Origin: Candidatus Sericytochromatia bacterium
GTDB lineage: Bacteria; Cyanobacteriota; Sericytochromatia; S15B-MN24; JAQBPE01
NCBI GenBank assembly: GCA_035285325.1
Contig: JAYKJB010000021.1
Location: forward strand, 18,549 to 82,548
Length of the DNA stretch: 64,000 nucleotides
Reading direction: 5' to 3'
Made by a program: the position numbers and the translations under genes. Within the stretch, counting starts at the first letter, position 1, and every line of letters starts with the position of its first letter. Shown piece after piece: positions 5,686 through 40,392 of the stretch. The notes under the pieces were generated by a model. It had not been told where the DNA came from, did no database searches, and saw nothing but the letters and a program-made list of their open reading frames with translations.

Positions 5686-5751
5686 GGAACATTCAGTCCT
5701 GAAGCACCGTGCGACGCCTTGGCTGTCGCCGTGCCCCTGCGGAACCCGTCT

Positions 5752-6657
5752 ATGACCACCTCAGCCCCCAAACCAGCCTGGCTCAAGGTTCGTCCTCCTG
5801 CCGGAGAACGCTACCAGTTCATCAAGGGGCGCCTTCGCCAACTGGGTCTCGCCACGGTCTGCGAGGAGGCACGCTGTCCCAACGTGGCGGAGTGCTGGGG
5901 AGGCGGTACCGCCACCATCATGGTGATGGGAGACACCTGCACCCGCGGATGCCGTTTTTGCGCCGTCAAAACCAATCGGGTCGGACGCCCGATCGATCCC
6001 GAGGAGCCCATCAAGGTGGCAGGGATGCTGGCGCAACTCGAACTGGACTACGTGGTGATCACTTCGGTCGACCGTGACGACCTGCCCGACCAAGGGGCGG
6101 GACATTTCGCCGCGGTGATCAGGGAGGTGAAAGCGCGGCGCCCCGACATGCTGGTCGAGGTGCTCATTCCTGACTTTCGTGGCGAGCGGGGATTGATCCG
6201 CCTGGTGGCCGACGCGGGGCCTGACGTGATCGCCCACAACGTGGAAACGGTCGCGCGTCTCACGCCCCGTGTGCGCGACCCACGCGCGAACTACCAGCAG
6301 TCACTGGACGTGCTTCGGGTGGTCAAGGAGCATGCCCCCGCGATTGCGACCAAGACGTCGTTGATGATCGGCCTCGGTGAGACAGAGGCGGAAGTGGCGG
6401 AGGCCTTGCGAGACCTGCGCGCGGTCGACTGCGAAATTGTGACCTTTGGCCAGTACCTGCAGCCGACGGCCAAGCATCTCCCTGTGGTAGAGTACGTGCG
6501 CCCGGAGGTATTCGCCGCCTACGAGGACCTGGGCAAACGCCTCGGGTTTCGCTACGTGGCTTCAGGTCCGCTCGTGCGGAGTTCCTACCGAGCCGGCGAA
6601 CTGTTCATCAAGGGGATGCTCGAGGCGCGGAAATCCCCCGCCGTGGCCCATCCCTGA
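5752..6657 (+). CDS. lipA: Lipoyl synthase (radical SAM)
   Basis: 'CEEARCPNVAECW' is the auxiliary cluster and 'GDTCTRGCRFCAV' is the radical-SAM CxxxCxxC site. The C-terminus is typical of LipA. An alternative upstream start at 5719 is possible. Confidence 0.92.
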   Translation: MTTSAPKPAWLKVRPPAGERYQFIKGRLRQLGLATVCEEARCPNVAECWGGGTATIMVMGDTCTRGCRFCAVKTNRVGRPIDPEEPIKVAGMLAQLELDYVVITSVDRDDLPDQGAGHFAAVIREVKARRPDMLVEVLIPDFRGERGLIRLVADAGPDVIAHNVETVARLTPRVRDPRANYQQSLDVLRVVKEHAPAIATKTSLMIGLGETEAEVAEALRDLRAVDCEIVTFGQYLQPTAKHLPVVEYVRPEVFAAYEDLGKRLGFRYVASGPLVRSSYRAGELFIKGMLEARKSPAVAHP

Positions 6658-6679
6658 CCCCTCCGGAGGAGTATCGCGC

Positions 6680-7654
6680 ATGCCGACGATGAACATCATC
6701 CAAGCCGTCAATGACGCCTTGCGGCGAGAGATGCGTCGGGACGAACGGGTGGTCGTGCTCGGGGAGGACGTGGGGCGCTTCGGCGGTGTGTTCCGCGCCA
6801 CCACGGGCTTGCAGGAAGAGTTCGGGAGTGGGCGGGTGCTCGACACGCCGCTGGCCGAGAATGGAATCATTGGGGCCGCCATCGGCATGGCGCTCTACGG
6901 TCTGCGCCCGGTGCCTGAGATTCAGTTCGCAGATTTCGCCTACCCCGCCTTTGACCAACTGACCAACGAACTGGCCAAGTTCCGATTCCGCTCAGGTGGT
7001 CAGTATCCCTGCCCTGTGGTGGTCCGCATGCCCGTTGGGGGCGGCATCAAGGGGGGACATTACCACTCCCAACACAACGAGACCTATTTTGCCCATACCG
7101 CTGGGCTGGTGGTTGTGTGCCCGTCCAATCCGGTCGATGCCAAGGGCCTGCTGGCATCGGCCATCCGAAGCGATGACCCCGTCATTTTCATGGAGCCCAA
7201 ACGGGTGTATCGCGCGGCCCGGGCTGACGTCCCTGAAGACGACTACCTCACGCCCATTGGTAAAGCCGCCTGCCTCCGAGAAGGACGCGGCCTGACGGTG
7301 CTGACTTATGGAGCCGTCACGCACACCGTGCTGGAGGCTGCTGTCGAAGCCGAAAAGCGCGGAATGGACCCGGAAATCCTCGACCTGCGTACCCTGATTC
7401 CCCTCGATATCGACGCCGTGCTCACCTCCGTCCGCAAGACGAGGCGCTGCGTGATCGTGCATGAAGCGCCCCGGACCCTGGGATTCGGCGCGGAACTTGC
7501 GGCCCTGATCACGGAACACGCCTTCTGGCATCTTGAAGCGCCCGTGCTCCGCGTCACCGGATACGATACGCCCTTTCCCTACACACTCGAACACGAATAC
7601 CTGCCGGACACAGCGCGAATCCTCGCTGCGTTCACGCGGGTTCTCGCCGTCTGA
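6680..7654 (+). CDS. 2-oxoacid dehydrogenase E1 component beta subunit (transketolase-like)
   Basis: 'MPTMNIIQAVNDALRREMRRDERVVVLGEDVG…' is the canonical E1-beta N-terminus. 'FMEPKRVYR' and the C-terminal transketolase-C fold motifs are present. A GGAGG RBS lies 10 nt upstream. There is no E1-alpha gene upstream: the gap to lipA is 22 nt. Confidence 0.9.
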   Translation: MPTMNIIQAVNDALRREMRRDERVVVLGEDVGRFGGVFRATTGLQEEFGSGRVLDTPLAENGIIGAAIGMALYGLRPVPEIQFADFAYPAFDQLTNELAKFRFRSGGQYPCPVVVRMPVGGGIKGGHYHSQHNETYFAHTAGLVVVCPSNPVDAKGLLASAIRSDDPVIFMEPKRVYRAARADVPEDDYLTPIGKAACLREGRGLTVLTYGAVTHTVLEAAVEAEKRGMDPEILDLRTLIPLDIDAVLTSVRKTRRCVIVHEAPRTLGFGAELAALITEHAFWHLEAPVLRVTGYDTPFPYTLEHEYLPDTARILAAFTRVLAV

Positions 7655-7669
7655 TTGAAGGAGTCGCCC

Positions 7670-9001
7670 ATGAGTCACGTCACCCTCGTCGAGATCCAAC
7701 CCGGCCAATTCGAATTCCGGCTGCCTGACATTGGTGAAGGCGTCGTGGAGGGCGAGATTGTCAAGTGGCTGGTCGCGGAAGGGCAAGCCATCAAAGAAGA
7801 CGAACCGATTGTGGAGATCATGACGGACAAGGCGACGGTGGAAATTCCCAGTCCCAAGTCCGGGACGGTGGCCCGACGGTTCTGGACAGAGGGTCAGATC
7901 TGCCCGGTGGGTCAGGCGTTGGTTCTGATCGTGTCGGAGGGGTCGGTCGGAGCTGCGGCGCTCCCCGTGACGGAAGTCGACGCGCCGGCCAAACAGGAAG
8001 TCGTCGTGGCCGTGGCGTCAGGCTCGAGCAATGGGCACGGGTCGGTCAAGGCCGGCACCGCGGTGCTGGAGCGACCGTCCGGAGAGAGGGCCTTGGCGGC
8101 GCCGGCCACGCGGAAGTTGGCGCGTGACCTGGGGGTGGACCTTCAACTGGTCCCAGGTTCCGGCCCTCACGGGCGGGTGACCCGCGATGACGTCCAGGCC
8201 TTCGCAGCAGGGCCAACACTCGCTCCGGTCGCCTCGGTTCCTGCCATTCCTGTGGCCGTGGCAGCGACGTCACCTGCCATCTCCATCGCCGCCGGCCCGG
8301 GCGACGAGCGTCGCCCCTTGCGTGGATTGCGTCGCAAGATCGCCGAGAAAATGGTGCAGTCGGCCTTCACCGCCCCGCACGTCACGACCTTCGACGAGGT
8401 CGACATGACGGCCTTGGTGGGCTTGCGCCAGCGCATGAAGCCTCGCGCCGAGGCATTGGGCGTCAAACTGAGCTACATGCCGTTTTTCATCAAGGCCGTG
8501 ATTGCAGCGCTCAAACAGTTTCCGAGCTTCAACGCCAGCCTGGACGACACGACTCAGGAAATTGTGATCAAGCGCGACTATCACATCGGCTTCGCGGCGG
8601 CGACCGATAACGGGTTGCTCGTCCCGGTCATCCGCCATGCGGACCGCAAGAGCCTCTTGGAGATTGCTCGCGACATGGCAGACATCGCGGCTCGAACGCG
8701 TGCCGGAAAGGCCACGGCAGAGGAACTCTCGGGAAGCACCTTCACGATCTCGAACGTGGGTTCCATCGGCGGTCTGTTTGCCACTCCGATCATCAACCAT
8801 CCGGAGGTGGCCATCCTCGGGGTGAACAACATGCAGAAGCGGGCGGTTGTGCTGGAGGATGGCACGTTGGCCGCGCGGGACATGATGTATCTCGGACTGT
8901 CCTTCGACCACCGCGTGAATGACGGCGCGGAGGCTGTCCTGTTCCTGAATGCCGTGATCGGCTACCTGAAGGACCCCGAAACCCTGTTGATGACGCTCTG
9001 A
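7670..9001 (+). CDS. Dihydrolipoamide acyltransferase (E2) with lipoyl, E3-binding and catalytic domains
   Basis: Lipoyl-lysine motif 'IMTDKATVEIPSP', peripheral subunit-binding domain 'RKLARDLGVDLQLVPGSGPHGRVTRDDV', and catalytic 'DHRVNDGAEA'. The ATG at 7670 follows an AAGGAG RBS. Confidence 0.9.
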   Translation: MSHVTLVEIQPGQFEFRLPDIGEGVVEGEIVKWLVAEGQAIKEDEPIVEIMTDKATVEIPSPKSGTVARRFWTEGQICPVGQALVLIVSEGSVGAAALPVTEVDAPAKQEVVVAVASGSSNGHGSVKAGTAVLERPSGERALAAPATRKLARDLGVDLQLVPGSGPHGRVTRDDVQAFAAGPTLAPVASVPAIPVAVAATSPAISIAAGPGDERRPLRGLRRKIAEKMVQSAFTAPHVTTFDEVDMTALVGLRQRMKPRAEALGVKLSYMPFFIKAVIAALKQFPSFNASLDDTTQEIVIKRDYHIGFAAATDNGLLVPVIRHADRKSLLEIARDMADIAARTRAGKATAEELSGSTFTISNVGSIGGLFATPIINHPEVAILGVNNMQKRAVVLEDGTLAARDMMYLGLSFDHRVNDGAEAVLFLNAVIGYLKDPETLLMTL

Positions 9002-9077
9002 ATCGTCACCGACTCTCCCCGCCGCGCAACCTCGCCGGGCCGTGCGCGCGCAACCCCTGCTCCGAAGGAGTTTTCGC

Positions 9078-10493
9078 ATGGAAACCAGACAATATGATGC
9101 TGTCGTGATCGGCGCTGGACCGGGCGGATACGCCTGCGGAATCCGACTGGGACAGTTGGGCCTCAAGGCGCTGGTGATCGAAAAAGGGTCGGTGGGGGGA
9201 GTTTGCTTGAACGTGGGATGCATCCCATCCAAGGCCATCATCCACGCGGCAAAGACCCTGGAAAAGACCAAAAAAGCGGACGCGATGGGCATCGTGGTGG
9301 AAAGCGTCCATCTGGACTTTGCCCGTTTGCAATCCTGGAAAGACGGAATCGTCAAGAAACTGACGGGCGGCGTATCGGGACTTCTCAAAGGGAACAAGGT
9401 GGACCTCTTGCAGGGAGCGGCGCGCTTTGTGTCACCGCGGGAACTGGAAGTGGAGACGGCGAGTGGCCCCATTCGCGTGCAGGCCCCTCACATGGTCCTC
9501 GCAACCGGCTCCAGACCGATCGAGGTGCCCGGATTCCCCTTCGGCGGTCCCATCCTGAGTTCCACCGAAGCGCTTTCCCTGCCAGAGGTGCCGGGCCGCT
9601 TGCTGGTCATCGGGGGCGGTTACATCGGATTGGAACTGGGCCAGGCCTACGCCAAGATGGGGGCTGCCGTGACCATCGTCGAAGCTGGCAGCCAGTTGCT
9701 CCCGGGCCAAGATCCAGAACTGGTAGCCGTTGTGGCCAAGAAACTCGCCGCACTGGGCGTCACGGTCCTGACAGACGCGAAAGCAGCGGGCTGGGCGCCA
9801 GATGGAGCCGGGGCGCTCGTCACGGTTGAACGCCAGGGCCAGCGCGAAACCTTGAGCGCTGACAAGGTGTTGGTGACGGTGGGCCGTCGCCCCAACAGCG
9901 AGAACCTGGGCCTGGAAACGGTCGGGGTCGCCGTGGAACGAGGATTCGTCCGGGTGGATGCGCAGCTGAAAACGAATGTAGCCGGCATTTACGCGATTGG
10001 CGACGTGGCCGGGCAGCCCATGCTGGCGCACAAGGCGTCGATGGAGGCTGAAATTGTGGCGGAGGTGATCGCCGGGCATCCGGCTCAGTGGGACGCGCAA
10101 GCCATCCCTGCCGTCATCTTCACGGATCCCGAGATCGCGACCGTGGGACTCTCGCCGGCTGAGGCGGCGAATCAGAAGCTTCCCGTTCTGACCGGAAAGT
10201 TTCCGTTTGGGGCCTCCGGGCGAGCCATGACGACTGGAGAAACCGAGGGGTTTGTCAAGGTGCTGGTGCATGCCGAGACCCACCGTTTGCTGGGAGTAGG
10301 GATCGTGGGGCCACAGGCCTCCGACCTCGTCGCAGAGGCCACCTTGGCCCTTGAGATGGGGGCCTTCACCGACGACATCGGCCTGACCATTCACGCCCAC
10401 CCCACCTTGCCCGAGGCCTTCATGGAAGCGGTCAAACACGCCGTCGGCGAGGCCGTCCACACCCTCAACCAACCCGCTCTGGCCAAGCGCTGA
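9078..10493 (+). CDS. lpdA: Dihydrolipoyl dehydrogenase (E3)
   Basis: 'YDAVVIGAGPGGY' is the FAD-binding site, 'GGVCLNVGCIPSK' the redox disulfide, and 'HAHPTLPE' the C-terminal His-Glu dyad region. Confidence 0.92.
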   Translation: METRQYDAVVIGAGPGGYACGIRLGQLGLKALVIEKGSVGGVCLNVGCIPSKAIIHAAKTLEKTKKADAMGIVVESVHLDFARLQSWKDGIVKKLTGGVSGLLKGNKVDLLQGAARFVSPRELEVETASGPIRVQAPHMVLATGSRPIEVPGFPFGGPILSSTEALSLPEVPGRLLVIGGGYIGLELGQAYAKMGAAVTIVEAGSQLLPGQDPELVAVVAKKLAALGVTVLTDAKAAGWAPDGAGALVTVERQGQRETLSADKVLVTVGRRPNSENLGLETVGVAVERGFVRVDAQLKTNVAGIYAIGDVAGQPMLAHKASMEAEIVAEVIAGHPAQWDAQAIPAVIFTDPEIATVGLSPAEAANQKLPVLTGKFPFGASGRAMTTGETEGFVKVLVHAETHRLLGVGIVGPQASDLVAEATLALEMGAFTDDIGLTIHAHPTLPEAFMEAVKHAVGEAVHTLNQPALAKR

Positions 10494-10553: not shown

Positions 10554-13500
10554 TCAGGTACCAGGCTCGGGGGTCCCCTCCAGCCTGGCCCGCTGCAAGG
10601 CCTCTTGCGCCCTGGCCAGCACGACATTGATGGTGCCATCCGCAGGCCGCCAGTCTGCCACGCCACACGACACCTTCACGGGCGGAAGTGGGTCGTCTGG
10701 CGACTGGCGCTCGTGCGACGCGCGAATCTGGGCGGAGGCCCGATGCGCCAGGTTCAGGGCGTCCGTCCCCGGCGTCTCGGGACAGAGAACCACAAACGCC
10801 TCTCCCCCAAGTCGGGCCACCAGATCAGTTTCACGAGCCGCATCGGCCAGGACCTGCCCGACGCGTTGCAGGATTTGATCCCCAACGGCCGGGCCAAATT
10901 GCTCCCTGGTTTCCTGAAAGTGGTCTACTTCGAAGCACAGGAGTGCAAGGGCGCGATTCTGCCTGCGCGCCAGGGCCAGTTCGCGGTCTGCGGTCGCCAG
11001 GAAGGCCCGCCGATTTCGCAGGCCAGTCAGCGCATCCAGGTTGGCGACCCTGTCGGCCTGACGCACGGCCCTCAATTGCTTTTCGAGTTCCTCGGTATGG
11101 CGCGCGATGCCTTCATACAACGTGGCGTTCTCGAAGGCCGTCGAGGCGTGAGACGCGACCAGCGCCAGCTGGTCCAGGTCCTGCAGCGAGTAGGCCACCC
11201 GAGCCGCCTGACTGTCGACATAGAGCACCCCCAAGCACCGTCCCTTTGCGATCATGGGAGCCACCATGACGGCCTTCAGGTTCAAAGCCGCCACCGACTT
11301 TCCTGGTTCAAAATCCTCCAATTTTTGACCTTCGATCAGGGCAGCCGGTTCCCGGCGGGCCGCCACCCGGAGACACACACTCATGGACAGGGGCTGATTT
11401 CGGATGTCACGCCCGCCCCGGTCCAGACCTGCTCGCACCAGCAGGTCCTCGTAACGGCCCTGGGACTTCAGCAAGGCAAAGGCCCGCTCCGCTCCGGTGA
11501 GCTCCAGCGCCACGCGCAACACCGCCTGGGCCACATCATCGACCACCAGGGAGGCGTTGATGGACGCCACCATCCGATTGAAGGTGGCGAGCTGCTCCCG
11601 CTTGGCTCCCCAAGCACGAATCATCAGGCCATAGTGAGAGGTGACGCCTGACAAGTCCGACGTGATCTGCCCAAATCGCTGCAACATGTCCTGATGGGCC
11701 TCAGCACTGAGCAGCAAGGTCCCACCGCCCGCCCAGACCCGTTCGAGAACGGTTTTGACCCCCTCCTGAGAAGCCACCTGAGCCCGACGGTCAGCCGGTA
11801 AGGTCCCCAACATCCGACGCAGGAGCCGCTGCGCATCCTGGAAATTGGCAATAGCCGCTTCTGCCAGCGGGTTGCAACGACCGGAACCGTCCAGGGCCCG
11901 CGCTGTCAACCAGGGCAATCCCATCTCGTCGGCGTGGTGGCGAGCCAGTTGAAAATGGCGCGCCGCATCCGAGCCGCCTCGCAGAAGCGAGCATTCGCCT
12001 TGGAGGCATTCCAGATAGGCGAGCGCTCGTCTCGCCCCGGCCGACTTCAAGGGTTCGCCCAGCCCAGCCAAGGCGTCCGCAGCCCCCGAGGCGTCACCGA
12101 CCGCCAGGCGGATGCTGGCAAGTTGCAGGCGTGCCTCGGTTTGGGCCGCAAGATTCGAATTCGCGGGCAAGGCTCGCAAGGCATCAGCCCGGGCCGCCTC
12201 CCACTCGCCCCGGGAAAGCCTGAGGTGAGACCGGGCCAGGAACCATTCAGCCGTATCCGGCTGGCCCGGGGCCCAATGGACCGCCAGGCGGTCGAGACAC
12301 GCTTGCAGCTCTTCCTGCAGGCCCACGCGACAGGCCGCGTGGGCGAGACGGGAAAGCGGCCATTCCAGTTCCGACGTTGGGCTCGCCCCATACGCCTCCA
12401 GCAGGCGCTCCAGCAACGCAAAGGCTTCCTCCAGGCGGCCCTGCTCCACCAGGACCCAGCCCTGCAGGGCTTGGGACTGTTGGAGCAGCAGCCCATTGTC
12501 TGCCTGGTCGAGCGCCGCGCGAGGCAATACCTCCAAGGCCTGGTCCAGCGAACCACATTCAGCGAGCACGAGCGCATGGCGCAAGCGCCTGCCGGCCAGC
12601 TGTTCCTCAGATTCCCTACGCTCACTCAGCAGAAGCCAGTCTGGCATGACCTGGCGCAATTCCCGCCAACGTCCCAGGGACCAGGCCAGTGCCACAAGCT
12701 GAGTCAACATGTCGTATTTCAAACTGGAGAGCGCATCGGGGCAGTCCAGCAGGGCCGTCACGGCCTCCTCGAACAGGGGCGTTTGCCAATCCTTCACCGT
12801 CTGGCAGCGCAACAGGGCAGTGGCGGCTGCCAACCAGGCCCCGATGTCCCCAGGCACGGCAACTTGCTCCGCGCGCAGGGAATGCAGGACCGCCTCTGCC
12901 TCCTGCAGGCGATGCTCCCCCAGCAGGATGGTGGCGAGCTCGAGGCGAGGTCGAAACCGTCCCCAGCGCAAGCTTTCGAGGGATGATTCCGCACACAGGA
13001 CCTCCAGGCTCTCACGCGCGCGTTCCCGTTCCCGCAATCCGCCGCTCCGATGCAAGCAGATGGCCAAAGCGAGTTGCAGGTCTCGCGTGTTACCAGGCCG
13101 TCCGGCGTTGAGGGCGATCGCCCGCTCGAGCTGGCCCCGCGCAGCCTGCCAGTCAGCCTTCTGGGCAGCGACCCAGGCCAACCCTTCAAGCGCATCCTCC
13201 TGGACGGCGATGGCCACCATCGCCGTGTGGAGGCCACCCAGCAACGCCAAAAAACAAGTCTCGGCCGTGCTGGTTGCTCCGAGGCTCAGGGCATACCATC
13301 CGGCGTCATGCCATTGTTTCGAAGCGTCCACTCCGGCTGCTGATTCGTGGTAGGCCAGACGCAGACTGCGCGAGGTCACCGGCCACCAGGGGGCAACCGG
13401 TGAGAGTTCCACATAGTTCGCCAGGCGCTGATGGTGAGCCTGACGTGTCGCCGGAGCCAGGTGCTCGCGGCCCCACGCAAGTTCATCGTTCGCGAGGAGG

Positions 13501-15356
13501 ATGCCGGCTGGATACAAGCGCGCGCGGCCCAGCCCCAAGAGCGCGGAGAGATGGCGGAGGGCCTGCTCCGGGGCCTCGGCAGCGAGCAGGCCAGCCCAAT
13601 CCAGCAGCCCATCGGGGTGGGTCAGGGCCACCAAGCAAATGATGTCCCTCCCATCCGCCACAGAATCAGCCTCCCCGGAGGATTCTCGCTCCGCAGAGGC
13701 ATCCAGGACCTGTGGCCAGAGGGTTTCCGGAAGACGCCAGCCTCCAGGGGTCTCCACGATCACGCGCTTCGACGTGAGCTGAGCGAGCAGGTCAGCCGCT
13801 CGCTGATAATCTCCGCCTGAGTGGCGGCGCAAGGCCGCGGCAAAACGAGAAGGCACGCGGGGAAGTTGAAAAATGGCGGCCAGCCAGTCTTCAAAGTCGT
13901 GGTCATCCGGCGCCTTCACGGGCAGGCTGCGAGCAGGCAAATCCCCCAAACCAGCCCGGGTTGATACCACCCACACCAGTCCGGGACGCTCCACCCGCAG
14001 CACGGCACGCAGCAGGCTCTGGCTGGGCTCGTCCAGGGCCTCCCAACCGTCGATGAAGCAGACCAGCGGCCCTCGCTGCGCCAAGGCATCGAACAGACCG
14101 TTCCCGGCGGCCACCAGGTGGTCCAGGGGGCGCTCATCCAGGCGAAGCGGCACCAGGGGGTCCTGGCATCGCTGGTCCAAGGCGGCCAACGCGTCACTGC
14201 AGAGTGCCGCGGCTGATTCGTCCCTGGAGCTCAGAGCCGCGCGGAGGGCCAGCAAGATTTGCCGCCAGGCCACCAGTGGAACCTGTGAAGGCGTGGCCTG
14301 GAACCACACGCTTGGAATGCCTTCCCGCAGGCAGTCTGCCCGCAGGACACGCAACAGGCGAGACTTCCCTCCCCCCGTCGGCGCACGAGCCTCCAGCAGG
14401 GCCCCACGAGACGTCGTTGCCACCTGGATGGCATCCCAACCTGCCGAGGCCGAGGCCTGAAGCGAACGAGGCATCGACGCCCGAAAATCGACCGTCAGAC
14501 TTCGCTCCTGTTTCTGCTTGCCTGAAGGGGGCGCCAGGAAAGTTTCCCAGGCCTGCTGACGGGCAGCGGGCTCGGGGGACAGCAACCGCTGCAGTAGCCG
14601 CAAGAGTTCCTGCGCCTCACCGGTGCCACGGAGTTCAGTCGCCGGAGGCGGCCCAGCCAGCAGGCACCCGGCCAGCGCATCGTCACGAACCGAAGCAAAG
14701 GGGTGACTCCCGGTCAGCAAAGTCCATCCCAGAACACCGAGCCCCCACATGTCCGTGCGATAACTGAGTGGTTCCCCTCGTAAGGCCTCAGGAGGCGTGT
14801 CAGGGCGAAGCGCTTCGACAAGCGTCCCCACCTCACTCCCCTCTGGCAGGCAGCACCACCAGTTCAGCACGACGGGCATCCCCTCAGCCGTGAATCGGAC
14901 GGCGTGGGCGGCCAGATGTCCGTGGTACCAACCTAGTGCGTGCAGGGCGTCGAGCACGCGGGCCAGCTGTTCGAGGATTTCGCGGACGCGCGAGACGGGG
15001 AGAGGCGCAAGTTCCTCGACGCTCGGACCATCCACCCAATCACTTTGCAAGACCATCGAGCCCGTGCGGGTTCGTCGGATGGGGCCGGCCAGCACGCAAG
15101 CTGGATCCGCGAGACTGTTCCAAATCTGCCGGACCAGCACCAAACGCAGGGGATCCAGGTCCCAAGCAGACAAGTACTCGCGCACCCCGATTCGCTTTCC
15201 GCCCTGCAGCGGAACGAGGACGCGCCACGGTCCCGGCGACGCATCCACCTGCGCGATCGCCTTGTAGCCTAATGGTTGGAGTGGATCCGACTCGCTCATG
15301 ACTGTCCTGACAGGGCGCCGACCAGCCCGCGCCCCCCTCATATACCCGACCGCCAC
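10554..15356 (-). CDS. Giant multidomain signalling protein: degenerate Ser/Thr kinase (pseudokinase), STAND-like P-loop NTPase, long TPR array, GAF, GGDEF with degenerate GGEAF motif and intact RxxD I-site
   Basis: N-terminus: the kinase-fold catalytic loop reads 'HGHLAAHAV' (verified at 14898-14924), where HRDLKPxN has lost its D, K and N, and DFG is replaced by 'NWW'. Walker A 'APTGGGKS' is at about 14361-14384. More than 600 aa of Ala/Leu-rich TPR-like repeats follow. The GAF domain contains 'LGVLYVD'. The GGDEF domain opens with 'LDALTGLRNRRAF' and its active site reads 'RETDLVARLGGEAF' (GGEAF verified at 10794-10808). Confidence 0.85.
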   Translation of the reverse strand: MAVGYMRGARAGRRPVRTVMSESDPLQPLGYKAIAQVDASPGPWRVLVPLQGGKRIGVREYLSAWDLDPLRLVLVRQIWNSLADPACVLAGPIRRTRTGSMVLQSDWVDGPSVEELAPLPVSRVREILEQLARVLDALHALGWYHGHLAAHAVRFTAEGMPVVLNWWCCLPEGSEVGTLVEALRPDTPPEALRGEPLSYRTDMWGLGVLGWTLLTGSHPFASVRDDALAGCLLAGPPPATELRGTGEAQELLRLLQRLLSPEPAARQQAWETFLAPPSGKQKQERSLTVDFRASMPRSLQASASAGWDAIQVATTSRGALLEARAPTGGGKSRLLRVLRADCLREGIPSVWFQATPSQVPLVAWRQILLALRAALSSRDESAAALCSDALAALDQRCQDPLVPLRLDERPLDHLVAAGNGLFDALAQRGPLVCFIDGWEALDEPSQSLLRAVLRVERPGLVWVVSTRAGLGDLPARSLPVKAPDDHDFEDWLAAIFQLPRVPSRFAAALRRHSGGDYQRAADLLAQLTSKRVIVETPGGWRLPETLWPQVLDASAERESSGEADSVADGRDIICLVALTHPDGLLDWAGLLAAEAPEQALRHLSALLGLGRARLYPAGILLANDELAWGREHLAPATRQAHHQRLANYVELSPVAPWWPVTSRSLRLAYHESAAGVDASKQWHDAGWYALSLGATSTAETCFLALLGGLHTAMVAIAVQEDALEGLAWVAAQKADWQAARGQLERAIALNAGRPGNTRDLQLALAICLHRSGGLRERERARESLEVLCAESSLESLRWGRFRPRLELATILLGEHRLQEAEAVLHSLRAEQVAVPGDIGAWLAAATALLRCQTVKDWQTPLFEEAVTALLDCPDALSSLKYDMLTQLVALAWSLGRWRELRQVMPDWLLLSERRESEEQLAGRRLRHALVLAECGSLDQALEVLPRAALDQADNGLLLQQSQALQGWVLVEQGRLEEAFALLERLLEAYGASPTSELEWPLSRLAHAACRVGLQEELQACLDRLAVHWAPGQPDTAEWFLARSHLRLSRGEWEAARADALRALPANSNLAAQTEARLQLASIRLAVGDASGAADALAGLGEPLKSAGARRALAYLECLQGECSLLRGGSDAARHFQLARHHADEMGLPWLTARALDGSGRCNPLAEAAIANFQDAQRLLRRMLGTLPADRRAQVASQEGVKTVLERVWAGGGTLLLSAEAHQDMLQRFGQITSDLSGVTSHYGLMIRAWGAKREQLATFNRMVASINASLVVDDVAQAVLRVALELTGAERAFALLKSQGRYEDLLVRAGLDRGGRDIRNQPLSMSVCLRVAARREPAALIEGQKLEDFEPGKSVAALNLKAVMVAPMIAKGRCLGVLYVDSQAARVAYSLQDLDQLALVASHASTAFENATLYEGIARHTEELEKQLRAVRQADRVANLDALTGLRNRRAFLATADRELALARRQNRALALLCFEVDHFQETREQFGPAVGDQILQRVGQVLADAARETDLVARLGGEAFVVLCPETPGTDALNLAHRASAQIRASHERQSPDDPLPPVKVSCGVADWRPADGTINVVLARAQEALQRARLEGTPEPGT

Positions 15357-35593: not shown

Positions 35594-38188
35594 GTGATGC
35601 CGATGCCCCCCGTCATTTATTGTCCTGAATGCGACGCCGAGAATGAGGCCAAAAGCCTCGTCTGCCTGGCCTGTGGTCACGCGTTCAAGGGTGATCCGAC
35701 GGCCCTGCTGTTCTCCCACGCCACGGCTCCTACCCACGCCCCCCCGCCCCCGGTGGCCTCGCCCGCCACCGATCACCCCGTCGGCAGTGGCCTGCTGCCA
35801 GCTGACAGCGTGCTGCAGAACCGCTACCGCATCACGCAGCTGCTGGGGCAGGGGGGCATGGGAGCGGTCTATCTGGCCAGCGATGCGCGCTTCTCTTCCC
35901 GGACCTGCGTGATCAAGGAAATGCTGGACCATTTCAACGATCCGGAACAGCGGGCGCAGGCCACCGAAAGCTTTCACCGCGAAGCCGATTTACTGGCCAC
36001 CTTCAAACATCCGGGTATCCCGGAAGTCTACGATCGTTTCACCGAGGCCAACCGACACTATCTGGTGATGGAATACATCAACGGGGTGGATCTAGAGCAA
36101 CGCTTGCTCGACAACGGGCTCCCTTTCACGGAGAAGGAGGTCATCGATTGGTCGATTCAATGTTGTGACGTGCTGTCCTACCTGCACCACCAGAACCCTC
36201 CCATCATCTACCGCGACATGAAGCCCGCCAATATCATCACGACCCATTGGGGCAAGGCGTACCTGGTGGACTTCGGCATTGCGAGGTTTTTCAATCCCGT
36301 GACCCGCGGCACGATGATTGGCACCCAAGGGTATGCCCCGCCCGAGCAGTATCGGGGACAGGTGGACCCCCGCTCGGACATTTACGCCTTGGGCGCCACC
36401 ATGCACTACCTCCTGACCGGACGCGACCCTCAAAACGAGGCGCCCTTCAGCTTCCCGCCCGTCAGCACCTTGAACGCTTCGGTGTCGCCTGAGATGGAGA
36501 TGCTGATTCTCAAGGCGCTTGATCCGGAGCCGGACAATCGCTTTGCCAGCGCGGATGAAATGCTGGGGCAGTTGATGGCCATCGGTGGGGATGAAACCAA
36601 TTTCGTCCGCGATTGCCCCCATTGCGGACACCGCTCCTCAGTGACCAGGCAGTTCTGCCCGAACTGCAAGCAATACATTTCGAAAAAGGCCCACGTGCTC
36701 AAGCCGCAAGACGGCACGGGCACGATCATGACCGACGCAGCGGGATACCATCAGGTCAAGGCGGCAGGGCGCACCGCAGGCCTGGTGGCTGGCAACCGCT
36801 CCGCCACCGCCACCGTGCTGGCCGTTCCCACCGGTCGGGTCGATTTCTCGCTGCGACGCGTGTCGCCGCTGGCCCTCGGCGCCGTCCTGACCGCCGGCCT
36901 CGCCCTGTCTGGCTGGCTGAGCTGGCAATGGTGGAACTCTCGCCCCGAGCCCATCACGAGCGAGGGCCAGACCTGTTTTATGCCGGGAGACCGTCCAGCC
37001 AAGGCAGAGGGCCAGGCGGCCTTTGCCCGCGGCCAGTTCGTTCAGGCGGTCGATGCCTACAGGCGTGCCATCGAGCAGACACCTGCGGATGGCGAAGCCC
37101 GCATTTACCTGCAAAATGCTCACGTGCGCCTGGCCAAGGCGGATAGCGTGAAGGTGGCGATCGCCGGGGCATTCTCCGGACAGCGCTCTCCTCTCGCGCA
37201 GGACATGCTGAGAGGGGCCGCTTTGGCCCAGCAACAGGCCAACGCCAGGGGACGTCTTCCCAAGATTCAACTGACCTTGCTGGACGATGCTGGGTCGACC
37301 TTGCGGGCGCTGGAAGGGGCCGATCTGGTCAGCCACGACCCAAGCCTGGTAGGTGTTTTGGGGCATCTCGGCACCCAGACGACCCAGGCGGCCTTGAAGC
37401 GTTACGCTGACGGCGGTGTTCCCGTCATCACGCTGGTGCCGGGCTCCTGGGACGCCCTGGATGCTCCCAAAGCCTTGGTGCGGTTTGCCGGTGGGGAAGC
37501 AGACTGGGCAGCGGCTTGGATCGACCAGGCCAAGCGGGTGTGGCGGGCCGACAAGGTAATCCTGCTCGAGTCGGGTGACGAGCGGAGCGGACGCAGCGCA
37601 ATGGGAACCCATGTGAGTCGCTGGGCCGTCGAAAAGGGCCTGGGGTATGAGACGGTGAGTTGGGAAGCACAGAATTCAGCGAGCATTCTCAGCCAGCTCA
37701 AGCCCCAGGCGAAGACGGTGCTGTTGTGGGCCGGCAATCTGGAGGACGCCGTGAGAATCAAATCAGACCTCGCGAGTGCAGGAAGCAAGGCCCCTCTGCT
37801 GGCGGGCCCGCTCGCTTACCAGCCTGAACGGTTGGCCGGGCTGGGGGCGGCGGCCGAAGGCCTCACGTGCCTGGTCCCTTACGCCGTGGACCACCGAATG
37901 GCCGGTTCCAGCGATTACGAAATGGAGTTTCGCAATCGCTTCCAGACCGAGCCGGGCTGGATGGCCTCCCTCACCTACGATGCCCTGGCCTACCTCGTCC
38001 AGGCCCTCGACCGAGTGGGGCCCCATCGTGACGCGCTGGGCAATGCCTTGCTCAGTTTGGGGCAGAACGGTCACCGAGGGCTGATAGGCCCCTTGCATCT
38101 CAATCGCGATGGCGAAGCCCGGCGTCCTATGGAACTATTCGAAGTTCGTTCGGGACGCTACACTTCCCTGCGCCTGACCGGAATGTGA
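35594..38188 (+). CDS. Ser/Thr protein kinase with N-terminal and juxtamembrane zinc ribbons, one TM, and periplasmic type-1 (LivJ-like) solute-binding sensor domain
   Basis: The kinase looks active: 'LGQGGMGAVYLA', 'CVIKEM', 'YRDMKPANI', 'DFGIAR' and 'GTQGYAPPE'. The zinc ribbons are 'CPECDAENEAKSLVCLACGH' and 'CPHCGHRSSVTRQFCPNCKQ'. A TM segment 'LALGAVLTAGLALSGWL' precedes a Peripla_BP_6-like domain of about 400 aa with a TPR. Confidence 0.9.
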   Translation: MMPMPPVIYCPECDAENEAKSLVCLACGHAFKGDPTALLFSHATAPTHAPPPPVASPATDHPVGSGLLPADSVLQNRYRITQLLGQGGMGAVYLASDARFSSRTCVIKEMLDHFNDPEQRAQATESFHREADLLATFKHPGIPEVYDRFTEANRHYLVMEYINGVDLEQRLLDNGLPFTEKEVIDWSIQCCDVLSYLHHQNPPIIYRDMKPANIITTHWGKAYLVDFGIARFFNPVTRGTMIGTQGYAPPEQYRGQVDPRSDIYALGATMHYLLTGRDPQNEAPFSFPPVSTLNASVSPEMEMLILKALDPEPDNRFASADEMLGQLMAIGGDETNFVRDCPHCGHRSSVTRQFCPNCKQYISKKAHVLKPQDGTGTIMTDAAGYHQVKAAGRTAGLVAGNRSATATVLAVPTGRVDFSLRRVSPLALGAVLTAGLALSGWLSWQWWNSRPEPITSEGQTCFMPGDRPAKAEGQAAFARGQFVQAVDAYRRAIEQTPADGEARIYLQNAHVRLAKADSVKVAIAGAFSGQRSPLAQDMLRGAALAQQQANARGRLPKIQLTLLDDAGSTLRALEGADLVSHDPSLVGVLGHLGTQTTQAALKRYADGGVPVITLVPGSWDALDAPKALVRFAGGEADWAAAWIDQAKRVWRADKVILLESGDERSGRSAMGTHVSRWAVEKGLGYETVSWEAQNSASILSQLKPQAKTVLLWAGNLEDAVRIKSDLASAGSKAPLLAGPLAYQPERLAGLGAAAEGLTCLVPYAVDHRMAGSSDYEMEFRNRFQTEPGWMASLTYDALAYLVQALDRVGPHRDALGNALLSLGQNGHRGLIGPLHLNRDGEARRPMELFEVRSGRYTSLRLTGM

Positions 38189-38206
38189 ACGCCGTGCGCC
38201 TTCCCG

Positions 38207-39874
38207 TTGCAAGCCATCAAAGGACGGAATGCCATGCTTGTTGACCAACTCCAGCCGCTTGATGCGGGCGCGATGCTGGCGGATCGCTATCGGGTCGAAC
38301 GTTTTCTGGAATTCAAGCACGGTTCGAACATGTACCGGGCGATCGACACGGTCACCAACTACGTGGTGATCGTGAAGGAACAGCCGGACGCGATGAAAGC
38401 CTTCACGCAACTACAGGGCGGAGAGTGGGCAGAGCAAAGTGCCGGGAATCCCTATCAGGGTGAGTTCCTGATTCTGCGCTCGGTCAGCTATCCCACGGTC
38501 GTGAAGGCTCTGGACATCTTCAAGAACGAGGGACGGGCCTACCTGATCATCGAGCAATTGGAAGGCCGGGATCTGGGCTACTACATGACCCAGAATCAGG
38601 TGACGGTGCAGCAATCGCTGGAATGGATGATTCAGCTCTGTCAATCGATCAGCCAGCTTCATCGAAGGCAGATACTCCACCTTGACCTTCACCCGCGCTG
38701 CATCGTCGTGGCGCCTGACAATCAGCGGGTGCGCCTGACGGGTTTCCACCGCGCCGTCGTCCTGCCCTTGGCCGCGGAGGCCACCATCGGGGCCACTGCG
38801 GGCTACTCGAGCCCTGAGCAGATGGGAATCTACGAACTGCCCATCGATGCTCGCTCGGATATCTACTCGCTGGGAGCCATCTGGTTTCAGTTGCTGACGG
38901 GTACCAATCCCGCCGACCTCGTGGAGGCCGAGTGGGGCACACTATTTCCGGCGGTGAGTGAGTCTTTGGTGGCGCTGCATCCACAGATCGCGCGGATTGT
39001 CACCAAGATGCTGGAGTCCGACCCCGAGCGTCGTTACGAATCCATCAACGATCTGAAAAACGAATTACTGGAACTGATCAACAACCCGTTGCGGCGAACC
39101 GGCCACTATTCCGATGTCGGCATGGTGCGCGAGGGCAACGAAGACGCCGTGGGACTGCGCGACATTGAATTCGTCAACCTTTCTCGCCAGCGCGGCCTGG
39201 GCCTCTATGTCGTGGCCGATGGCATGGGCGGCGTCAATGCCGGCGAGGTGGCGTCCTCGATCGCCATCGAAGAGTCCTTGGCGACGTTGGAGCAGGAACT
39301 GCCGTTTTCCCGTCTGGAACACGCGATCGATCCCAGTGAGATGATCCAAGCCGCCCTGACAACCGCCATCAAACGAGCCAATCTTCGCATTTACGAAACC
39401 GGTCGGGGAGATGAACGCCTTTCCGGCATGGGCACAACCCTGACGATTGGCGTCGTGTTCGGCCAGATCCTGTATGTGGGCCACGTGGGGGATAGCCGAG
39501 CCTATGTGATCAATCGCTGGGGCATCGAAAAAGTCAGCCGAGACCACTCGCTGGTCGGGCGCCTGGTCGAGATTGGTCAGATCACCGAGGAGGAAGCCCT
39601 CGTGCATCCTCAGCGCAACCTGATTTACCGGGCGCTGGGTACCTATCCGAACGTGGAAGTGGATACGTATCAACGATCCCTGAAACTGGGTGACTGGGTG
39701 CTGCTTTGCAGTGATGGGCTGACTGGACACCTCAAGGACCCGGAACTACAATCTATCGTTTCCGAACACAGCGATCCGCAACTGGCTGCTCAACATCTCG
39801 TGAATCTGGCGAATTTGCGCGGAGGGGAAGATAACATCTCCGTGGTGCTCGTCAATCTTGCCGAATACACCTGA
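38207..39874 (+). CDS. Pseudokinase-PP2C fusion: kinase-like N-domain lacking the DFG Asp, plus active PP2C Ser/Thr phosphatase
   Basis: The kinase-like region has 'YVVIVKE', a catalytic loop 'LHLDLHPRCIVV' where K has become H and N has become C, and 'LTGFHRA' in place of DFG. The PP2C part has 'LYVVADGMGG', 'VGDSRAYV', 'LLCSDGLTGH' and 'GGEDNISVVLV'. Confidence 0.85.
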   Translation: MQAIKGRNAMLVDQLQPLDAGAMLADRYRVERFLEFKHGSNMYRAIDTVTNYVVIVKEQPDAMKAFTQLQGGEWAEQSAGNPYQGEFLILRSVSYPTVVKALDIFKNEGRAYLIIEQLEGRDLGYYMTQNQVTVQQSLEWMIQLCQSISQLHRRQILHLDLHPRCIVVAPDNQRVRLTGFHRAVVLPLAAEATIGATAGYSSPEQMGIYELPIDARSDIYSLGAIWFQLLTGTNPADLVEAEWGTLFPAVSESLVALHPQIARIVTKMLESDPERRYESINDLKNELLELINNPLRRTGHYSDVGMVREGNEDAVGLRDIEFVNLSRQRGLGLYVVADGMGGVNAGEVASSIAIEESLATLEQELPFSRLEHAIDPSEMIQAALTTAIKRANLRIYETGRGDERLSGMGTTLTIGVVFGQILYVGHVGDSRAYVINRWGIEKVSRDHSLVGRLVEIGQITEEEALVHPQRNLIYRALGTYPNVEVDTYQRSLKLGDWVLLCSDGLTGHLKDPELQSIVSEHSDPQLAAQHLVNLANLRGGEDNISVVLVNLAEYT

Positions 39875-39924
39875 CCGTTTTTGAACCACAGAAACGCCCT
39901 TGCCCAAGAAAGGACGCGCCATCC

Positions 39925-40392
39925 ATGATCGTCTGTCCCAACTGCCACGCTGAAAACAAAGACGGCGTCAGTTACTGCGACGAATGCGGCACAAAACTGG
40001 AAGATGCCGTGAAACCAGCCCAGGTGGCCGCTGCGGAGATGTCGACCGGAGAAATGGGCCCGCCCGCCCAGCTGGTGATCACGCGCGGCGGAACGGTGGG
40101 CCGGGAGTTCCCACTGGAACAACGGGGGGAAACCCACATTGGCCGTTGGGATCCGGATGGTGGCGCATTTCCGGAAGTGGACCTGACCCAAGATGATCCC
40201 GAAGCCAAGATTTCCCGCAAGCATGCGCGAATCTTCTTCCGAGGCGGCGCCTATCACCTCGAAGACGTGGGGTCTCTGAATGGCACCTTTGTGAATCGGG
40301 GTTCCCGCTTGATGCCCGGCTCGCCGCAAGAGCTCAGAAATGGGGACGAACTGCTGTTGGGCAAAACGTTCTTCCGCTTCCAGTTGACCTGA
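39925..40392 (+). CDS. FHA-domain protein with N-terminal zinc ribbon
   Basis: 'CPNCHAENKDGVSYCDECG' is a zinc ribbon. The FHA core is 'THIGRW…ISRKHARIFFRGGAYHLEDVGSLNGTFVNRGSRL…GDELLLGKTFFRF'. Confidence 0.85.
   Translation: MIVCPNCHAENKDGVSYCDECGTKLEDAVKPAQVAAAEMSTGEMGPPAQLVITRGGTVGREFPLEQRGETHIGRWDPDGGAFPEVDLTQDDPEAKISRKHARIFFRGGAYHLEDVGSLNGTFVNRGSRLMPGSPQELRNGDELLLGKTFFRFQLT

Follow-up and report, generated by a model that had tools for sequence, protein, structure and literature searches.

Results

Gene and domain architecture

The stretch of DNA analysed here (64,000 nt, hereafter the window) derives from a member of the Sericytochromatia, a non-photosynthetic relative of the cyanobacteria, and carries on its minus strand the gene of a protein of 1581 aa (Table 1). 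The open reading frame named in the initial annotation, 10554..15356 (-), does exist, but the length of 1600 aa given for its product requires a GTG start at 15356 (+19 aa). The ATG at 15299, with AGGA 7 nt upstream, is the likelier start. The product matches NCBI P0001 at 100% identity, an entry that bears the name 'diguanylate cyclase' and comes from a Candidatus Sericytochromatia MAG; the same protein was also assembled independently from SRR19514065. GC3 of the gene is 0.73, a typical value for genes of this genome. Scanning the surroundings for promoter and terminator consensus sequences returned no sites on either strand, a scan that is uninformative for this lineage.

From the N-terminus onwards, the protein comprises a pseudokinase, a STAND-type (AAA_16) NTPase, a TPR-like solenoid, a long helix, a GAF domain and a GGDEF domain. 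The five-module order proposed in the initial annotation was borne out by Pfam profiles for all modules but the solenoid and by AF2 models for the kinase, NTPase and solenoid, and all the motifs quoted there (HGHLAAHAV, NWW, APTGGGKS, RETD and GGEAF) translate from the positions in Table 1. The precomputed domain list of P0001 is without the N-terminal pseudokinase and NTPase modules.

Table 1. Positions in the window of the 1581-aa protein's gene, modules and motifs, with the basis of each assignment.
Feature	Residues	Position	Strand	Basis
CDS, stop codon included		10554..15299	-	ORF list, translation
Pseudokinase domain, Hanks-type fold, all catalytic motifs lost	1-262	14514..15299	-	Pfam, PADLOC, AF2/Foldseek, alignments
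HGHLAAHAV, catalytic-loop remnant at HRDLKPxN; Asp, Lys and Asn lost		14898..14924	-	Alignment, translation
NWW at the DFG position		14856..14864	-	Alignment, translation
STAND-type NTPase (NBD, helical domain, winged helix)	~295-602	13494..14417	-	Pfam AAA_16, AF2, 6mfv_A match
Walker A P-loop APTGGGKS, intact		14361..14384	-	Alignment, translation
Walker B LVCFIDG; first Asp kept, second acidic residue (hhhhDD/E) is Gly		14046..14066	-	Alignment, translation
Arm and TPR-like helical-repeat solenoid, ~30 helices	~604-1189	11733..13490	-	AF2, Foldseek
Long single helix, solenoid-to-GAF joint, family-invariant HYGLMIRAW.AKR.QL	1199-1239	11583..11705	-	AF2, invariant columns
GAF domain	1253-1390	11130..11543	-	Pfam GAF_2/GAF, E about 1e-10
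GGDEF domain, degenerate active site	1419-1575	10575..11045	-	Pfam, E=3.8e-33
EVDHFQETRE at DxDxFKxxND; PleD D327E, K332Q, N335R, D336E		10902..10931	-	Alignments, translation
RETD, primary I-site (inhibition site, RxxD), 5 residues upstream of GGEAF		10824..10835	-	WspR RSSD and PleD RAID in register
GGEAF at GG[DE]EF		10794..10808	-	Alignments, translation
AHR; Arg equivalent to PleD R390, secondary I-site Arg		10740..10748	-	Gap-free PleD alignment; kept in all family members

Pseudokinase, NTPase and solenoid

Profiles, PDB matches and an AF2 model agree that the N-terminal domain has a protein-kinase fold. Pfam Pkinase matched the C-lobe only (E=1.6e-5, under the gathering score), PADLOC kinase profiles matched residues 80-256 (E=1e-11), and sequence matches in the PDB comprised NIK, PknA and PpkA. 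The model, confident in its core (pLDDT 80-95) and of low confidence in the N-lobe (residues 1-50), is closest in the PDB to the PknB kinase domain (Foldseek E=2e-11, TM 0.62/0.70). In alignments to canonical relatives, the VAIK Lys is replaced by R, the aC Glu by Q and the catalytic-loop Asn by A, while HGHLAAHA stands for HRDLKPxN and NWW for DFG. The first description of a catalytically mutated kinase end thus holds for the HRD Asp, the Asn of the catalytic loop and the DFG motif, and the VAIK Lys is gone as well; the module is classed on its motifs as a pseudokinase by the bSTK Atlas definition.

A suggestion that this module serves as a docking or decoy surface for kinases encoded 20-25 kb away found no support: nothing links them, unrelated genes intervene, and no similarity is detectable. 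Searching the window by tblastn with the 1581-aa protein (E<=1e-3) returned the self-match only, and hence no paralogue and no other GGDEF-domain homologue.

The Walker-A NTPase reported downstream of the kinase fold is present, and the AAA_16 profile agrees (E=3.5e-10, over the gathering score). In an AF2 model of the STAND-solenoid region (pLDDT about 83), an alpha/beta core is followed by a winged helix. The best PDB match of this model is 6mfv_A, from a STAND protein that has TPRs as its sensor, at E=9e-10 and TM 0.29/0.40, scores kept low by the multidomain geometry. Judged by the motif, the Walker B DG of the 1581-aa protein would make hydrolysis doubtful, with nucleotide binding still plausible; the second Walker B position is, however, lax across the family (DD, DS, DE, EH). 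A conserved Arg ahead of the P-loop is absent. In one lineage of the family, P0054, the P-loop itself has been lost.

More than 600 aa of TPR-like repeats had been proposed to follow. The helical-repeat solenoid stands, at about 585 aa and roughly 30 antiparallel helices in the AF2 model (pLDDT 83), as do its structural relationships, Foldseek matches being to APC subunits, the OGT TPR, Ctr9 (all TPR proteins) and a STAND-TPR protein. However, no Pfam TPR profile was significant (best E 0.57-0.87), and 'TPR-like' is thus the accurate term, the repeat nature being read from the model and its structural matches. In the modelled fragment, the linker helix spans positions 910-950. The GAF domain that it joins, likewise as annotated, is conserved more strongly than any other module in the family, with 56-68% identity to the orthologues.

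The GGDEF module

That the C-terminal domain has the GGDEF fold is clear from Pfam (115 bits), from NCBIfam GGDEF (111 bits, cutoff 37) and from PDB matches to diguanylate cyclases (DGCs) with E down to 1e-20. Gap-free alignments to WspR and PleD confirmed the register of GGEAF and RxxD. The list of active-site (A-site) residues is that of the PleD literature, and the numbering of the aligned PleD sequence was checked against the known positions D327, N335, D344 and E370. On this basis, six of eight A-site residues (D327, K332, N335, D344, E370, E371, K442 and R446) are changed or lost, with D344 and E370 kept. Besides the GGEAF change, these comprise D327E, K332Q, N335R, K442R and the loss of R446. 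Among the residues affected are the Asn that binds guanine (now Arg), an Asp that binds Mg and the two basic residues that bind phosphate. An engineered change of GGEEF to GGEAF in E. coli DgcX abolished both DGC-dependent phenotypes (PMC10459773). Together with the five to six other changed catalytic residues, this makes the original verdict, 'not an enzyme', a reasonable one as the probable reading. Pfam scans of the long ORFs of the window detected no EAL, HD-GYP or PilZ domain, which, like the lack of another GGDEF-domain homologue there, counts against a c-di-GMP input.

A rare orthologue family at a conserved locus

An exhaustive HMMER search recovered four collinear orthologues of 1577-1614 aa (E 1e-43 to 3e-51), and a genome scan added a fifth relative. 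For three of the five the organism is named, each time a Sericytochromatia MAG. Scanning GTDB with the family alignment likewise yielded three loci only, all in Sericytochromatia MAGs, while the same collection queried with the single 1581-aa protein gave nothing and a metagenome scan with the family alignment gave no further member, only one generic GGDEF fragment. Word-index searches, whether with the full protein or the family alignment, missed the true orthologues, which the collection does contain; an earlier result of 'no orthologue' was therefore an artefact.

All four orthologues sit between lipB-HEAT-GlpD and lpd-E2-E1beta-lipA. This position is conserved in at least five genomes among collinear housekeeping neighbours (lipoate and 2-oxoacid-dehydrogenase genes), and the Lpd proteins of the syntenic genomes are 75-80% identical. 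The N-terminal 1200 aa of the 1581-aa protein are only 18-34% identical to the orthologues, against 53-86% for neighbouring housekeeping genes. The protein is a divergent positional orthologue in a rare, lineage-restricted signalling family.

PknG-GarA controls 2-oxoglutarate dehydrogenase, and a comparable link of the present protein to its lipoate and 2-oxoacid-dehydrogenase neighbours was considered. It was not adopted because the whole 20-kb region is collinear among the genomes, and synteny here carries no specific information.

The locus also bears on a possible role as an anti-phage STAND sensor of the Avs type with an N-terminal effector-like domain, a resemblance raised in the initial annotation. 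The generic layout is indeed similar (N-terminal domain, STAND NTPase, TPR sensor), the kinase domain matches the defence-system kinase profiles mad6 and PD-T4-6 in PADLOC, and Avs3 ranks seventh among the structural matches. However, the PADLOC matches cover the generic kinase fold only, no Avs or NLR profile is matched, and the Avs3 match (TM 0.18/0.11) is weak and generic. The gene is vertically inherited at a single housekeeping locus, not in a defence island; the supposed effector is, by its motifs, catalytically dead; and the protein ends in a GAF-GGDEF output that Avs proteins lack. We give this reading hardly any credence.

Lineage-specific loss of the cyclase site

The VAIK Lys, catalytic-loop Asn and DFG motif are missing from the kinase domain of every orthologue (the DFG position reads TSW, TGW, NGW or EWW), so the pseudokinase state is ancestral to the family. 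The cyclase site has a different history. Whether relatives keep or lose GG[DE]EF had been raised at the outset as a point for comparison; all five relatives and the outgroup read GGEEF, and the 1581-aa protein alone has lost it. Since they keep a canonical cyclase site along with the RxxD I-site, the orthologues are predicted to be GAF/STAND-regulated, product-inhibited cyclases.

The family alignment comprised six lineages and one outgroup, P0058, by which rooting was assumed. At columns invariant in the five others, the 1581-aa protein has 13 unique substitutions, where other orthologues have 1-6, and these are enriched at the A-site (five of seven residues, hypergeometric p=0.006). That GGEAF might stem from misassembly was considered and rejected, given these 13 lineage-specific substitutions and the identical sequence in two assemblies. 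As orthologues are 18-68% identical and synonymous sites are saturated, dN/dS was unusable and was replaced by amino-acid relative-rate tests and a simulation of neutral drift. Tajima tests with P0058 as outgroup showed the protein to be accelerated in GGDEF (28:4, p=2e-5; 23:6, p=0.002) and nowhere else (kinase 31:32, NTPase 33:25, solenoid 73:65, GAF 23:22). The GGDEF acceleration was weaker with in-family outgroups (28-29:15-17, p 0.03-0.10).

These results weigh on the proposal that the domain is still a diguanylate cyclase, or has altered its nucleotide specificity, through the GGEAF site. Its fold is strongly conserved, the D344 and E370 equivalents remain, and some degenerate motifs retain activity, as that of a V. 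cholerae AGDEF enzyme is reported to do (PMC3974145). The change or loss of most A-site residues and the DgcX phenotypes point the other way, and substitutions that are both lineage-unique and A-site-enriched are a signature of lost constraint. Continued cyclase activity is accordingly very improbable in our view, and the database name 'diguanylate cyclase' is very probably wrong for this protein.

Loss of the cyclase could instead have made the entire protein dispensable, leaving a functionless relic in early decay whose stop codon or frameshift is yet to come. Degenerate catalytic motifs in three enzymatic modules and the low N-terminal identity relative to neighbouring genes would fit such a course. 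However, rapid N-terminal evolution is common to the whole family, the relative-rate tests being even for all four modules outside GGDEF; the GAF domain remains 64% identical to that of P0051, as high as between active orthologues; and GC3 is that of an ordinary gene. When the whole ORF was allowed to drift neutrally to 4% amino-acid change, the probability of encountering no stop was about 0.017, and at 8% no simulation of 300 retained a stop-free ORF. The simulation counted stop codons alone, and 0.017 is an upper bound, at a drift far below the excess seen in GGDEF. With an intact 4.7-kb ORF, and with its other four modules evolving no faster than in the rest of the family, this does not look like a decaying gene, and we regard the relic as improbable. 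As far as the sequences indicate, the kinase was already dead in the shared ancestor, and the cyclase A-site was dismantled in one genome alone, with the I-site residues remaining.

Discussion

Proposed role

The most likely role, to which we would assign a probability of roughly 0.55, is that of a non-catalytic STAND scaffold or switch which may still bind c-di-GMP. Such a protein would make no c-di-GMP and phosphorylate nothing. Its STAND core would bind nucleotide through the intact P-loop and probably hydrolyse it poorly, given the DG of Walker B, while the solenoid and GAF domain would, like those of the orthologues, receive the input. The GGDEF domain would now serve only for dimerisation and for binding c-di-GMP through RETD and the R390-equivalent Arg. 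The former feedback site may thereby have become the sole ligand site of that domain, as in degenerate-GGDEF receptors. Output would consist of protein-protein interaction via the pseudokinase, the oligomerised scaffold, or both.

Whether c-di-GMP belongs in this scheme depends on the meaning attached to the retained I-site. RETD is identical or near-identical in all orthologues, and because every active orthologue has the I-site too, its retention alone is no sign of receptor function. The chance that 13 substitutions among 54 conserved columns would miss the three I-site columns is considerable (p=0.43); retention is real but statistically uninformative on selection for binding. The anatomy would be the same if the GGDEF domain of the scaffold did no more than dimerise, or formed heterodimers that poison or regulate other cyclases. 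In such a scaffold, signals would pass from GAF and solenoid by way of the STAND core to proteins that bind the pseudokinase, with no input from c-di-GMP, and the greatest conservation, in the GAF domain and the helix before it, suggests an essential function at just that point. Against it, the three I-site residues are all intact and in register, and degenerate GGDEF domains with intact RxxD form a recurrent class of c-di-GMP receptor. We consider this alternative unlikely, though not negligible.

Returning to the c-di-GMP-binding scaffold, a more far-reaching possibility, offered only tentatively, is that the family captures successive natural stages in the conversion, under selection, of a multi-enzyme signalling protein into a pure scaffold (the kinase lost in the ancestor, the P-loop in the P0054 lineage and the cyclase in the present one), with a site of former inhibition serving here as the input of a c-di-GMP-gated STAND oligomerisation switch. 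We know of no described receptor class in which c-di-GMP gates STAND oligomerisation.

Proteins of the kinase-STAND-TPR-GAF-output type abound in bacteria, whose pseudokinases have as yet been little explored (PMC12599244). The lipB-lpd orthologues, having lost different catalytic modules in different lineages while the protein was retained, offer a comparative system in which to address the role of the non-catalytic parts, the re-use of a product-inhibition site as a sensor, and the manner in which STAND switches drive cyclase output.

Comparison with known systems

The initial annotation recognised no described family combining all five modules with both catalytic ends inactivated. The fusion itself is common and already annotated: homology searches returned dozens of Pkinase-AAA_16-(TPR)-GAF-GGDEF proteins of 1600-1780 aa named 'diguanylate cyclase', from Actinoplanes, Couchioplanes, Catenuloplanes and metagenomes, with the same module order and size. 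To our knowledge, none has been experimentally characterised. The Actinoplanes-type proteins are homologous to the 1581-aa protein in every module (21-31% identity) but, unlike it, have canonical HRD/HKD, DFG and GGEEF/GGDEF motifs. The same searches also returned relatives with a HisKA/HATPase output. A C. thermocellum protein of 1826 aa with a kinase, six TPRs and GGDEF was described in 2005 (PMC1262709).

The present family is one sub-branch of a cytosolic chassis, kinase-AAA_16/COG3899-TPR-(GAF)-output, that is widespread. The CP1 group of the bSTK Atlas, represented by WP_248060551.1, joins a cytosolic kinase-like domain with a predicted ATPase of the COG3899 type, GAF (FhlA) or PAS domains being frequent additions (PMC12599244; bioRxiv 10.1101/2025.01.12.632604). 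It occurs mainly in cyanobacteria and proteobacteria, about 40% of its members are pseudokinases with variable motif loss, and its function is unknown (PMC12599244). In the 1581-aa protein the kinase-like domain is followed by AAA_16, solenoid and GAF, a layout that may correspond to that of CP1, and the L. interrogans example Q8F6Y5, with K->R at VAIK and WLG at DFG, resembles the family in both positions. However, the description mentions no GGDEF output, which the 1581-aa protein possesses, likewise in inactivated form.

Of STAND proteins, MalT and PknK, placed in one subfamily, and PH0952 (PDB 6MFV) share with the 1581-aa protein the series of NBD, helical domain, winged helix, arm and TPR-like sensor. 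The STAND switch passes from an ADP-bound closed state to an ATP-bound open oligomer and is reset by hydrolysis, and PknK carries an N-terminal Ser/Thr kinase (PMC4381067). Outputs differ, being a LuxR-type DNA-binding domain in MalT and an active kinase in PknK, with GAF-GGDEF as an addition in the 1581-aa protein, which also departs from MalT and PknK in its Walker B DG and its missing Arg before the P-loop. HstK of Anabaena (PMC2176072, PMC1262709) is comparable in its N-terminal Hanks-type domain, GAF, C-terminal output, cytosolic location and cyanobacterial lineage, but its output is a histidine kinase instead of GGDEF, and its kinase domain is reported as a kinase.

The closest parallels for the proposed ligand site are degenerate-GGDEF receptors, with which the 1581-aa protein shares a degenerate A-site, an RxxD five residues upstream and the secondary Arg. 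PelD and PopA are receptors of this type that bind c-di-GMP through the RxxD I-site. Their partner domains are others, PelD having membrane/GAF and PopA receiver domains, and for the 1581-aa protein binding is a prediction. A further difference lies in history: the degeneracy of the 1581-aa protein arose recently and in a single lineage, the other orthologues of its family being predicted to be active.

The gene and its relatives

The minus-strand frame of 4.8 kb lies in DNA with a G+C content of 61–67% in most 2-kb segments and 58.5% at the lowest, and the probable start of the gene is the ATG at 15299, which has an AGGA upstream. The resulting protein of 1581 aa is identical (100%) to an NCBI protein from a Candidatus Sericytochromatia MAG annotated as 'diguanylate cyclase', and it was recovered identically, together with its neighbours, in an independent Logan assembly. 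Every motif quoted in the initial annotation, which had proposed an inactive scaffold of kinase, STAND NTPase, TPR, GAF and GGDEF modules, translates from the nucleotides assigned to it. Pfam profiles recognised GGDEF (E=3.8e-33), GAF (E=1e-10) and AAA_16 (E=3.5e-10), while Pkinase matched below threshold and in the C-lobe only (E=1.6e-5), and the TPR families gave no significant match (E 0.57–0.87).

A word-index protein search suggested that the query has no close relatives, a result overturned by an exhaustive HMMER search, which returned four collinear proteins (P0051–P0054; 1577–1614 aa; E 1e-43 to 3e-51). These are present in the same collection at 50–68% identity over the C-terminal 400 aa, and reliance on the word index alone would have produced a false 'orphan' verdict. 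One of the four clusters with a protein of a named Sericytochromatia MAG, and all share the gene order of the query locus: lipB-HEAT-(FAD oxidase)-GlpD, the gene itself, and lpd-E2-E1beta-lipA-NUDIX-GDH. Scanning GTDB with the family alignment yielded three loci, all in Sericytochromatia MAGs and one of them new (L006, a fifth relative); the same scan of metagenomes added no family member. As outgroup we took P0058 (1611 aa), which has the same architecture, a near-canonical kinase and a different gene context.

Neither in the window nor in the orthologous loci is an E1alpha gene adjacent to the lipA-E1beta-E2-lpd cluster. In the orthologous loci, lpd and E2 are separated by one or two ORFs that lack annotation and are absent from the window. 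The query gene and the P0054 locus derive from neighbouring run accessions (SRR19514065 and SRR19514071, respectively); these orthologues are deeply divergent, at about 28% identity overall. The two runs are possibly from one study, in which case related samples may harbour more than one Sericytochromatia lineage.

Coordinates of the features discussed
Feature	Sequence	Positions	Strand
Open frame containing the query gene	window	10554-15356	-
Helix, solenoid to GAF	window	11583-11705	-
lipA-E1beta-E2-lpd cluster	window	5719-10493	+
lipA-E1beta-E2-lpd cluster	L002	12882-18893	
lipA-E1beta-E2-lpd cluster	L003	12856-18136	
P0054 (P0200)	L003	8001-12839	
Fifth relative	L006	2884-7704	
Three-gene Ser/Thr signalling cluster	window	35594-40392	+
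Ser/Thr kinases cited initially	window	35594-39874	+
Zn-ribbon+Pkinase+TPR+periplasmic-binding-protein kinase	window	35594-38188	+
Pkinase-PP2C phosphatase fusion, single ORF	window	38207-39874	+
Zn-ribbon+FHA protein	window	39925-40392	+
Aerotolerance-like operon (BatA / VWA / VWA-TPR / DUF4381)	window	54739-58093	-

An ancestral pseudokinase

Residues 80–256 match kinase profiles of a defence library (E=1e-11), PDB sequence matches of the N-terminal domain are to NIK, PknA and PpkA, and an AlphaFold2 model of residues 1–300 (pLDDT 72.8, core above 80) finds its best PDB match in PknB of M. tuberculosis (E=2e-11, TM 0.62/0.70). Together these show the protein-kinase fold that had been assigned to the N-terminus. 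Judged by alignment with canonical relatives, the domain is a pseudokinase: the VAIK Lys is replaced by Arg, the aC Glu by Gln, HRDLKPxN by HGHLAAHA and DFG by NWW, and the C-lobe keeps its structural motifs (PPE for APE, DxWxxG and the aH Arg). Since DFG, the catalytic-loop Asn and the VAIK Lys are absent from every orthologue, with TSW, TGW, TSW, NGW and EWW at the DFG position of five relatives, the pseudokinase state must be ancestral and has persisted while the family diverged deeply. The suggestion that it serves as a docking or decoy surface for the Ser/Thr kinases encoded 20 kb away found no connection to build on; unrelated genes lie between. Within that cluster, the joining of kinase and phosphatase in one polypeptide is unusual.

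The STAND core

Walker A (APTGGGKS) is intact in the query, Walker B reads LVCFIDG with Gly at the second acidic position, and the conserved 'vGR' arginine before the P-loop is missing, with a deletion of about eight residues alongside. The AlphaFold2 model of residues 290–1240 (pLDDT 83.4) comprises an alpha/beta NTPase core, helical and winged-helix domains and some 30 antiparallel helices. The PDB entry matched best is 6MFV (E=9e-10), in which a STAND protein carries a TPR sensor, and many TPR proteins come next; this supports the initial reading of a STAND protein with a TPR-like sensor. MalT and PknK are placed together in one STAND subfamily (PMC4381067). The likeness to Avs proteins drawn initially did not hold up, Avs3 being a weak, generic structural match (TM 0.18), and an Avs-like role in defence is most improbable.

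In the model a single helix of 40 residues runs from the solenoid into GAF. No motif in the family is more strictly conserved than the one it bears, HYGLM[IV]R[AE]W.A....QL..LN, which would serve well as a family signature; the helix probably functions in signalling or dimerisation. Elsewhere in the family, the Walker A P-loop is gone from P0054, which reads ADQSDRWA there and has likewise lost its APE motif, yet keeps a canonical GGEEF, and the L006 protein has Arg for the P-loop Lys (GVGRT); different modules have thus been inactivated in different lineages.

Loss of the cyclase site in one member

In gap-free alignments with WspR and PleD, RETD coincides with the RxxD I-site and GGEAF with GGEEF, which is the register proposed initially; for PleD, known residue numbers confirmed it. 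In PleD numbering, the query carries D327E, K332Q, N335R, E371A and K442R, has lost R446, and keeps D344, E370 and the I-site R390. The predicted loss of cyclase activity is well founded, because engineering GGEEF to GGEAF in E. coli DgcX abolished both cyclase-dependent phenotypes (PMC10459773); the same result speaks against a residual or altered cyclase, which we regard as improbable.

All orthologues carry RxxD and the canonical cyclase site (DxDxFKxxND, GGEEF, AKxxGRN), so that the comparison of GG[DE]EF across orthologues called for initially shows its loss in the query alone. At GGDEF columns invariant in the other five, the query has 13 private substitutions (1–6 in the other orthologues), and five of seven conserved A-site columns are substituted (hypergeometric p=0.006). 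Identity of the orthologues to the query is 29–34% in the pseudokinase, 18–28% in the NTPase, 20–27% in the solenoid, 56–68% in GAF and 45–55% in GGDEF; for the neighbouring Lpd, E1beta and LipB, identity to the query's neighbours is 75–80%, 82–86% and 53–59%. Relative-rate tests with P0058 as outgroup show the query evolving faster in GGDEF alone (28:4, p=2e-5; 23:6, p=0.002; p 0.03–0.10 with in-family outgroups). In the other modules no acceleration was seen, the counts being 31:32 for the kinase, 33:25 for the NTPase, 73:65 for the solenoid and 23:22 for GAF.

Such substitutions might mark a gene in early decay. In neutral-drift simulations, which left indels out of the count, the whole ORF stayed open in 1.7% of trials at 4% amino-acid change and in none at 8%; this rarity and the normal rates outside GGDEF argue that the protein is still under selection, and decay is unlikely. 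The intact I-site is no evidence of a new receptor role, because all active orthologues possess it and it would escape 13 random hits with a probability of 0.43. A scaffold without c-di-GMP input gains from that uninformative retention, but both RETD and the R390 equivalent persist, and we consider it a minority prospect, if the foremost of the alternatives. No other GGDEF-domain homologue was found in the 64-kb window, nor did Pfam scans of its long ORFs detect EAL, HD-GYP or PilZ domains.

We favour a family of MalT-like STAND switches in which the solenoid and GAF would act as inputs, the pseudokinase would serve in regulation or docking, and a product-inhibited cyclase, switched on by oligomerisation, would be the output. 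In the query this output would be gone, and the protein may persist as a scaffold whose P-loop probably still binds nucleotide and whose I-site probably still binds c-di-GMP, and which would act through protein contacts.

Relation to known systems

The initial observation is thus confirmed, and its interpretation partly supported. Receptors formed by degenerate GGDEF domains whose I-site is intact are already an established class. Nor is the five-module architecture new, as had been supposed: many Pkinase-AAA_16-(TPR)-GAF-GGDEF proteins are already annotated, and sister outputs comprise GGDEF-EAL, a sigma54 activator, a class III cyclase, a His kinase and a solute-binding domain. The novelty lies in a group of Sericytochromatia orthologues whose pseudokinase is ancestral and of which one member has additionally lost the cyclase site. 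A protein combining kinase, TPR and GGDEF was described in 2005 (PMC1262709), and the CP1 family (2025) unites cytosolic proteins in which a kinase or pseudokinase is joined to a COG3899 ATPase and, in many cases, to GAF or PAS domains, chiefly in cyanobacteria and proteobacteria and of unknown function (PMC12599244).
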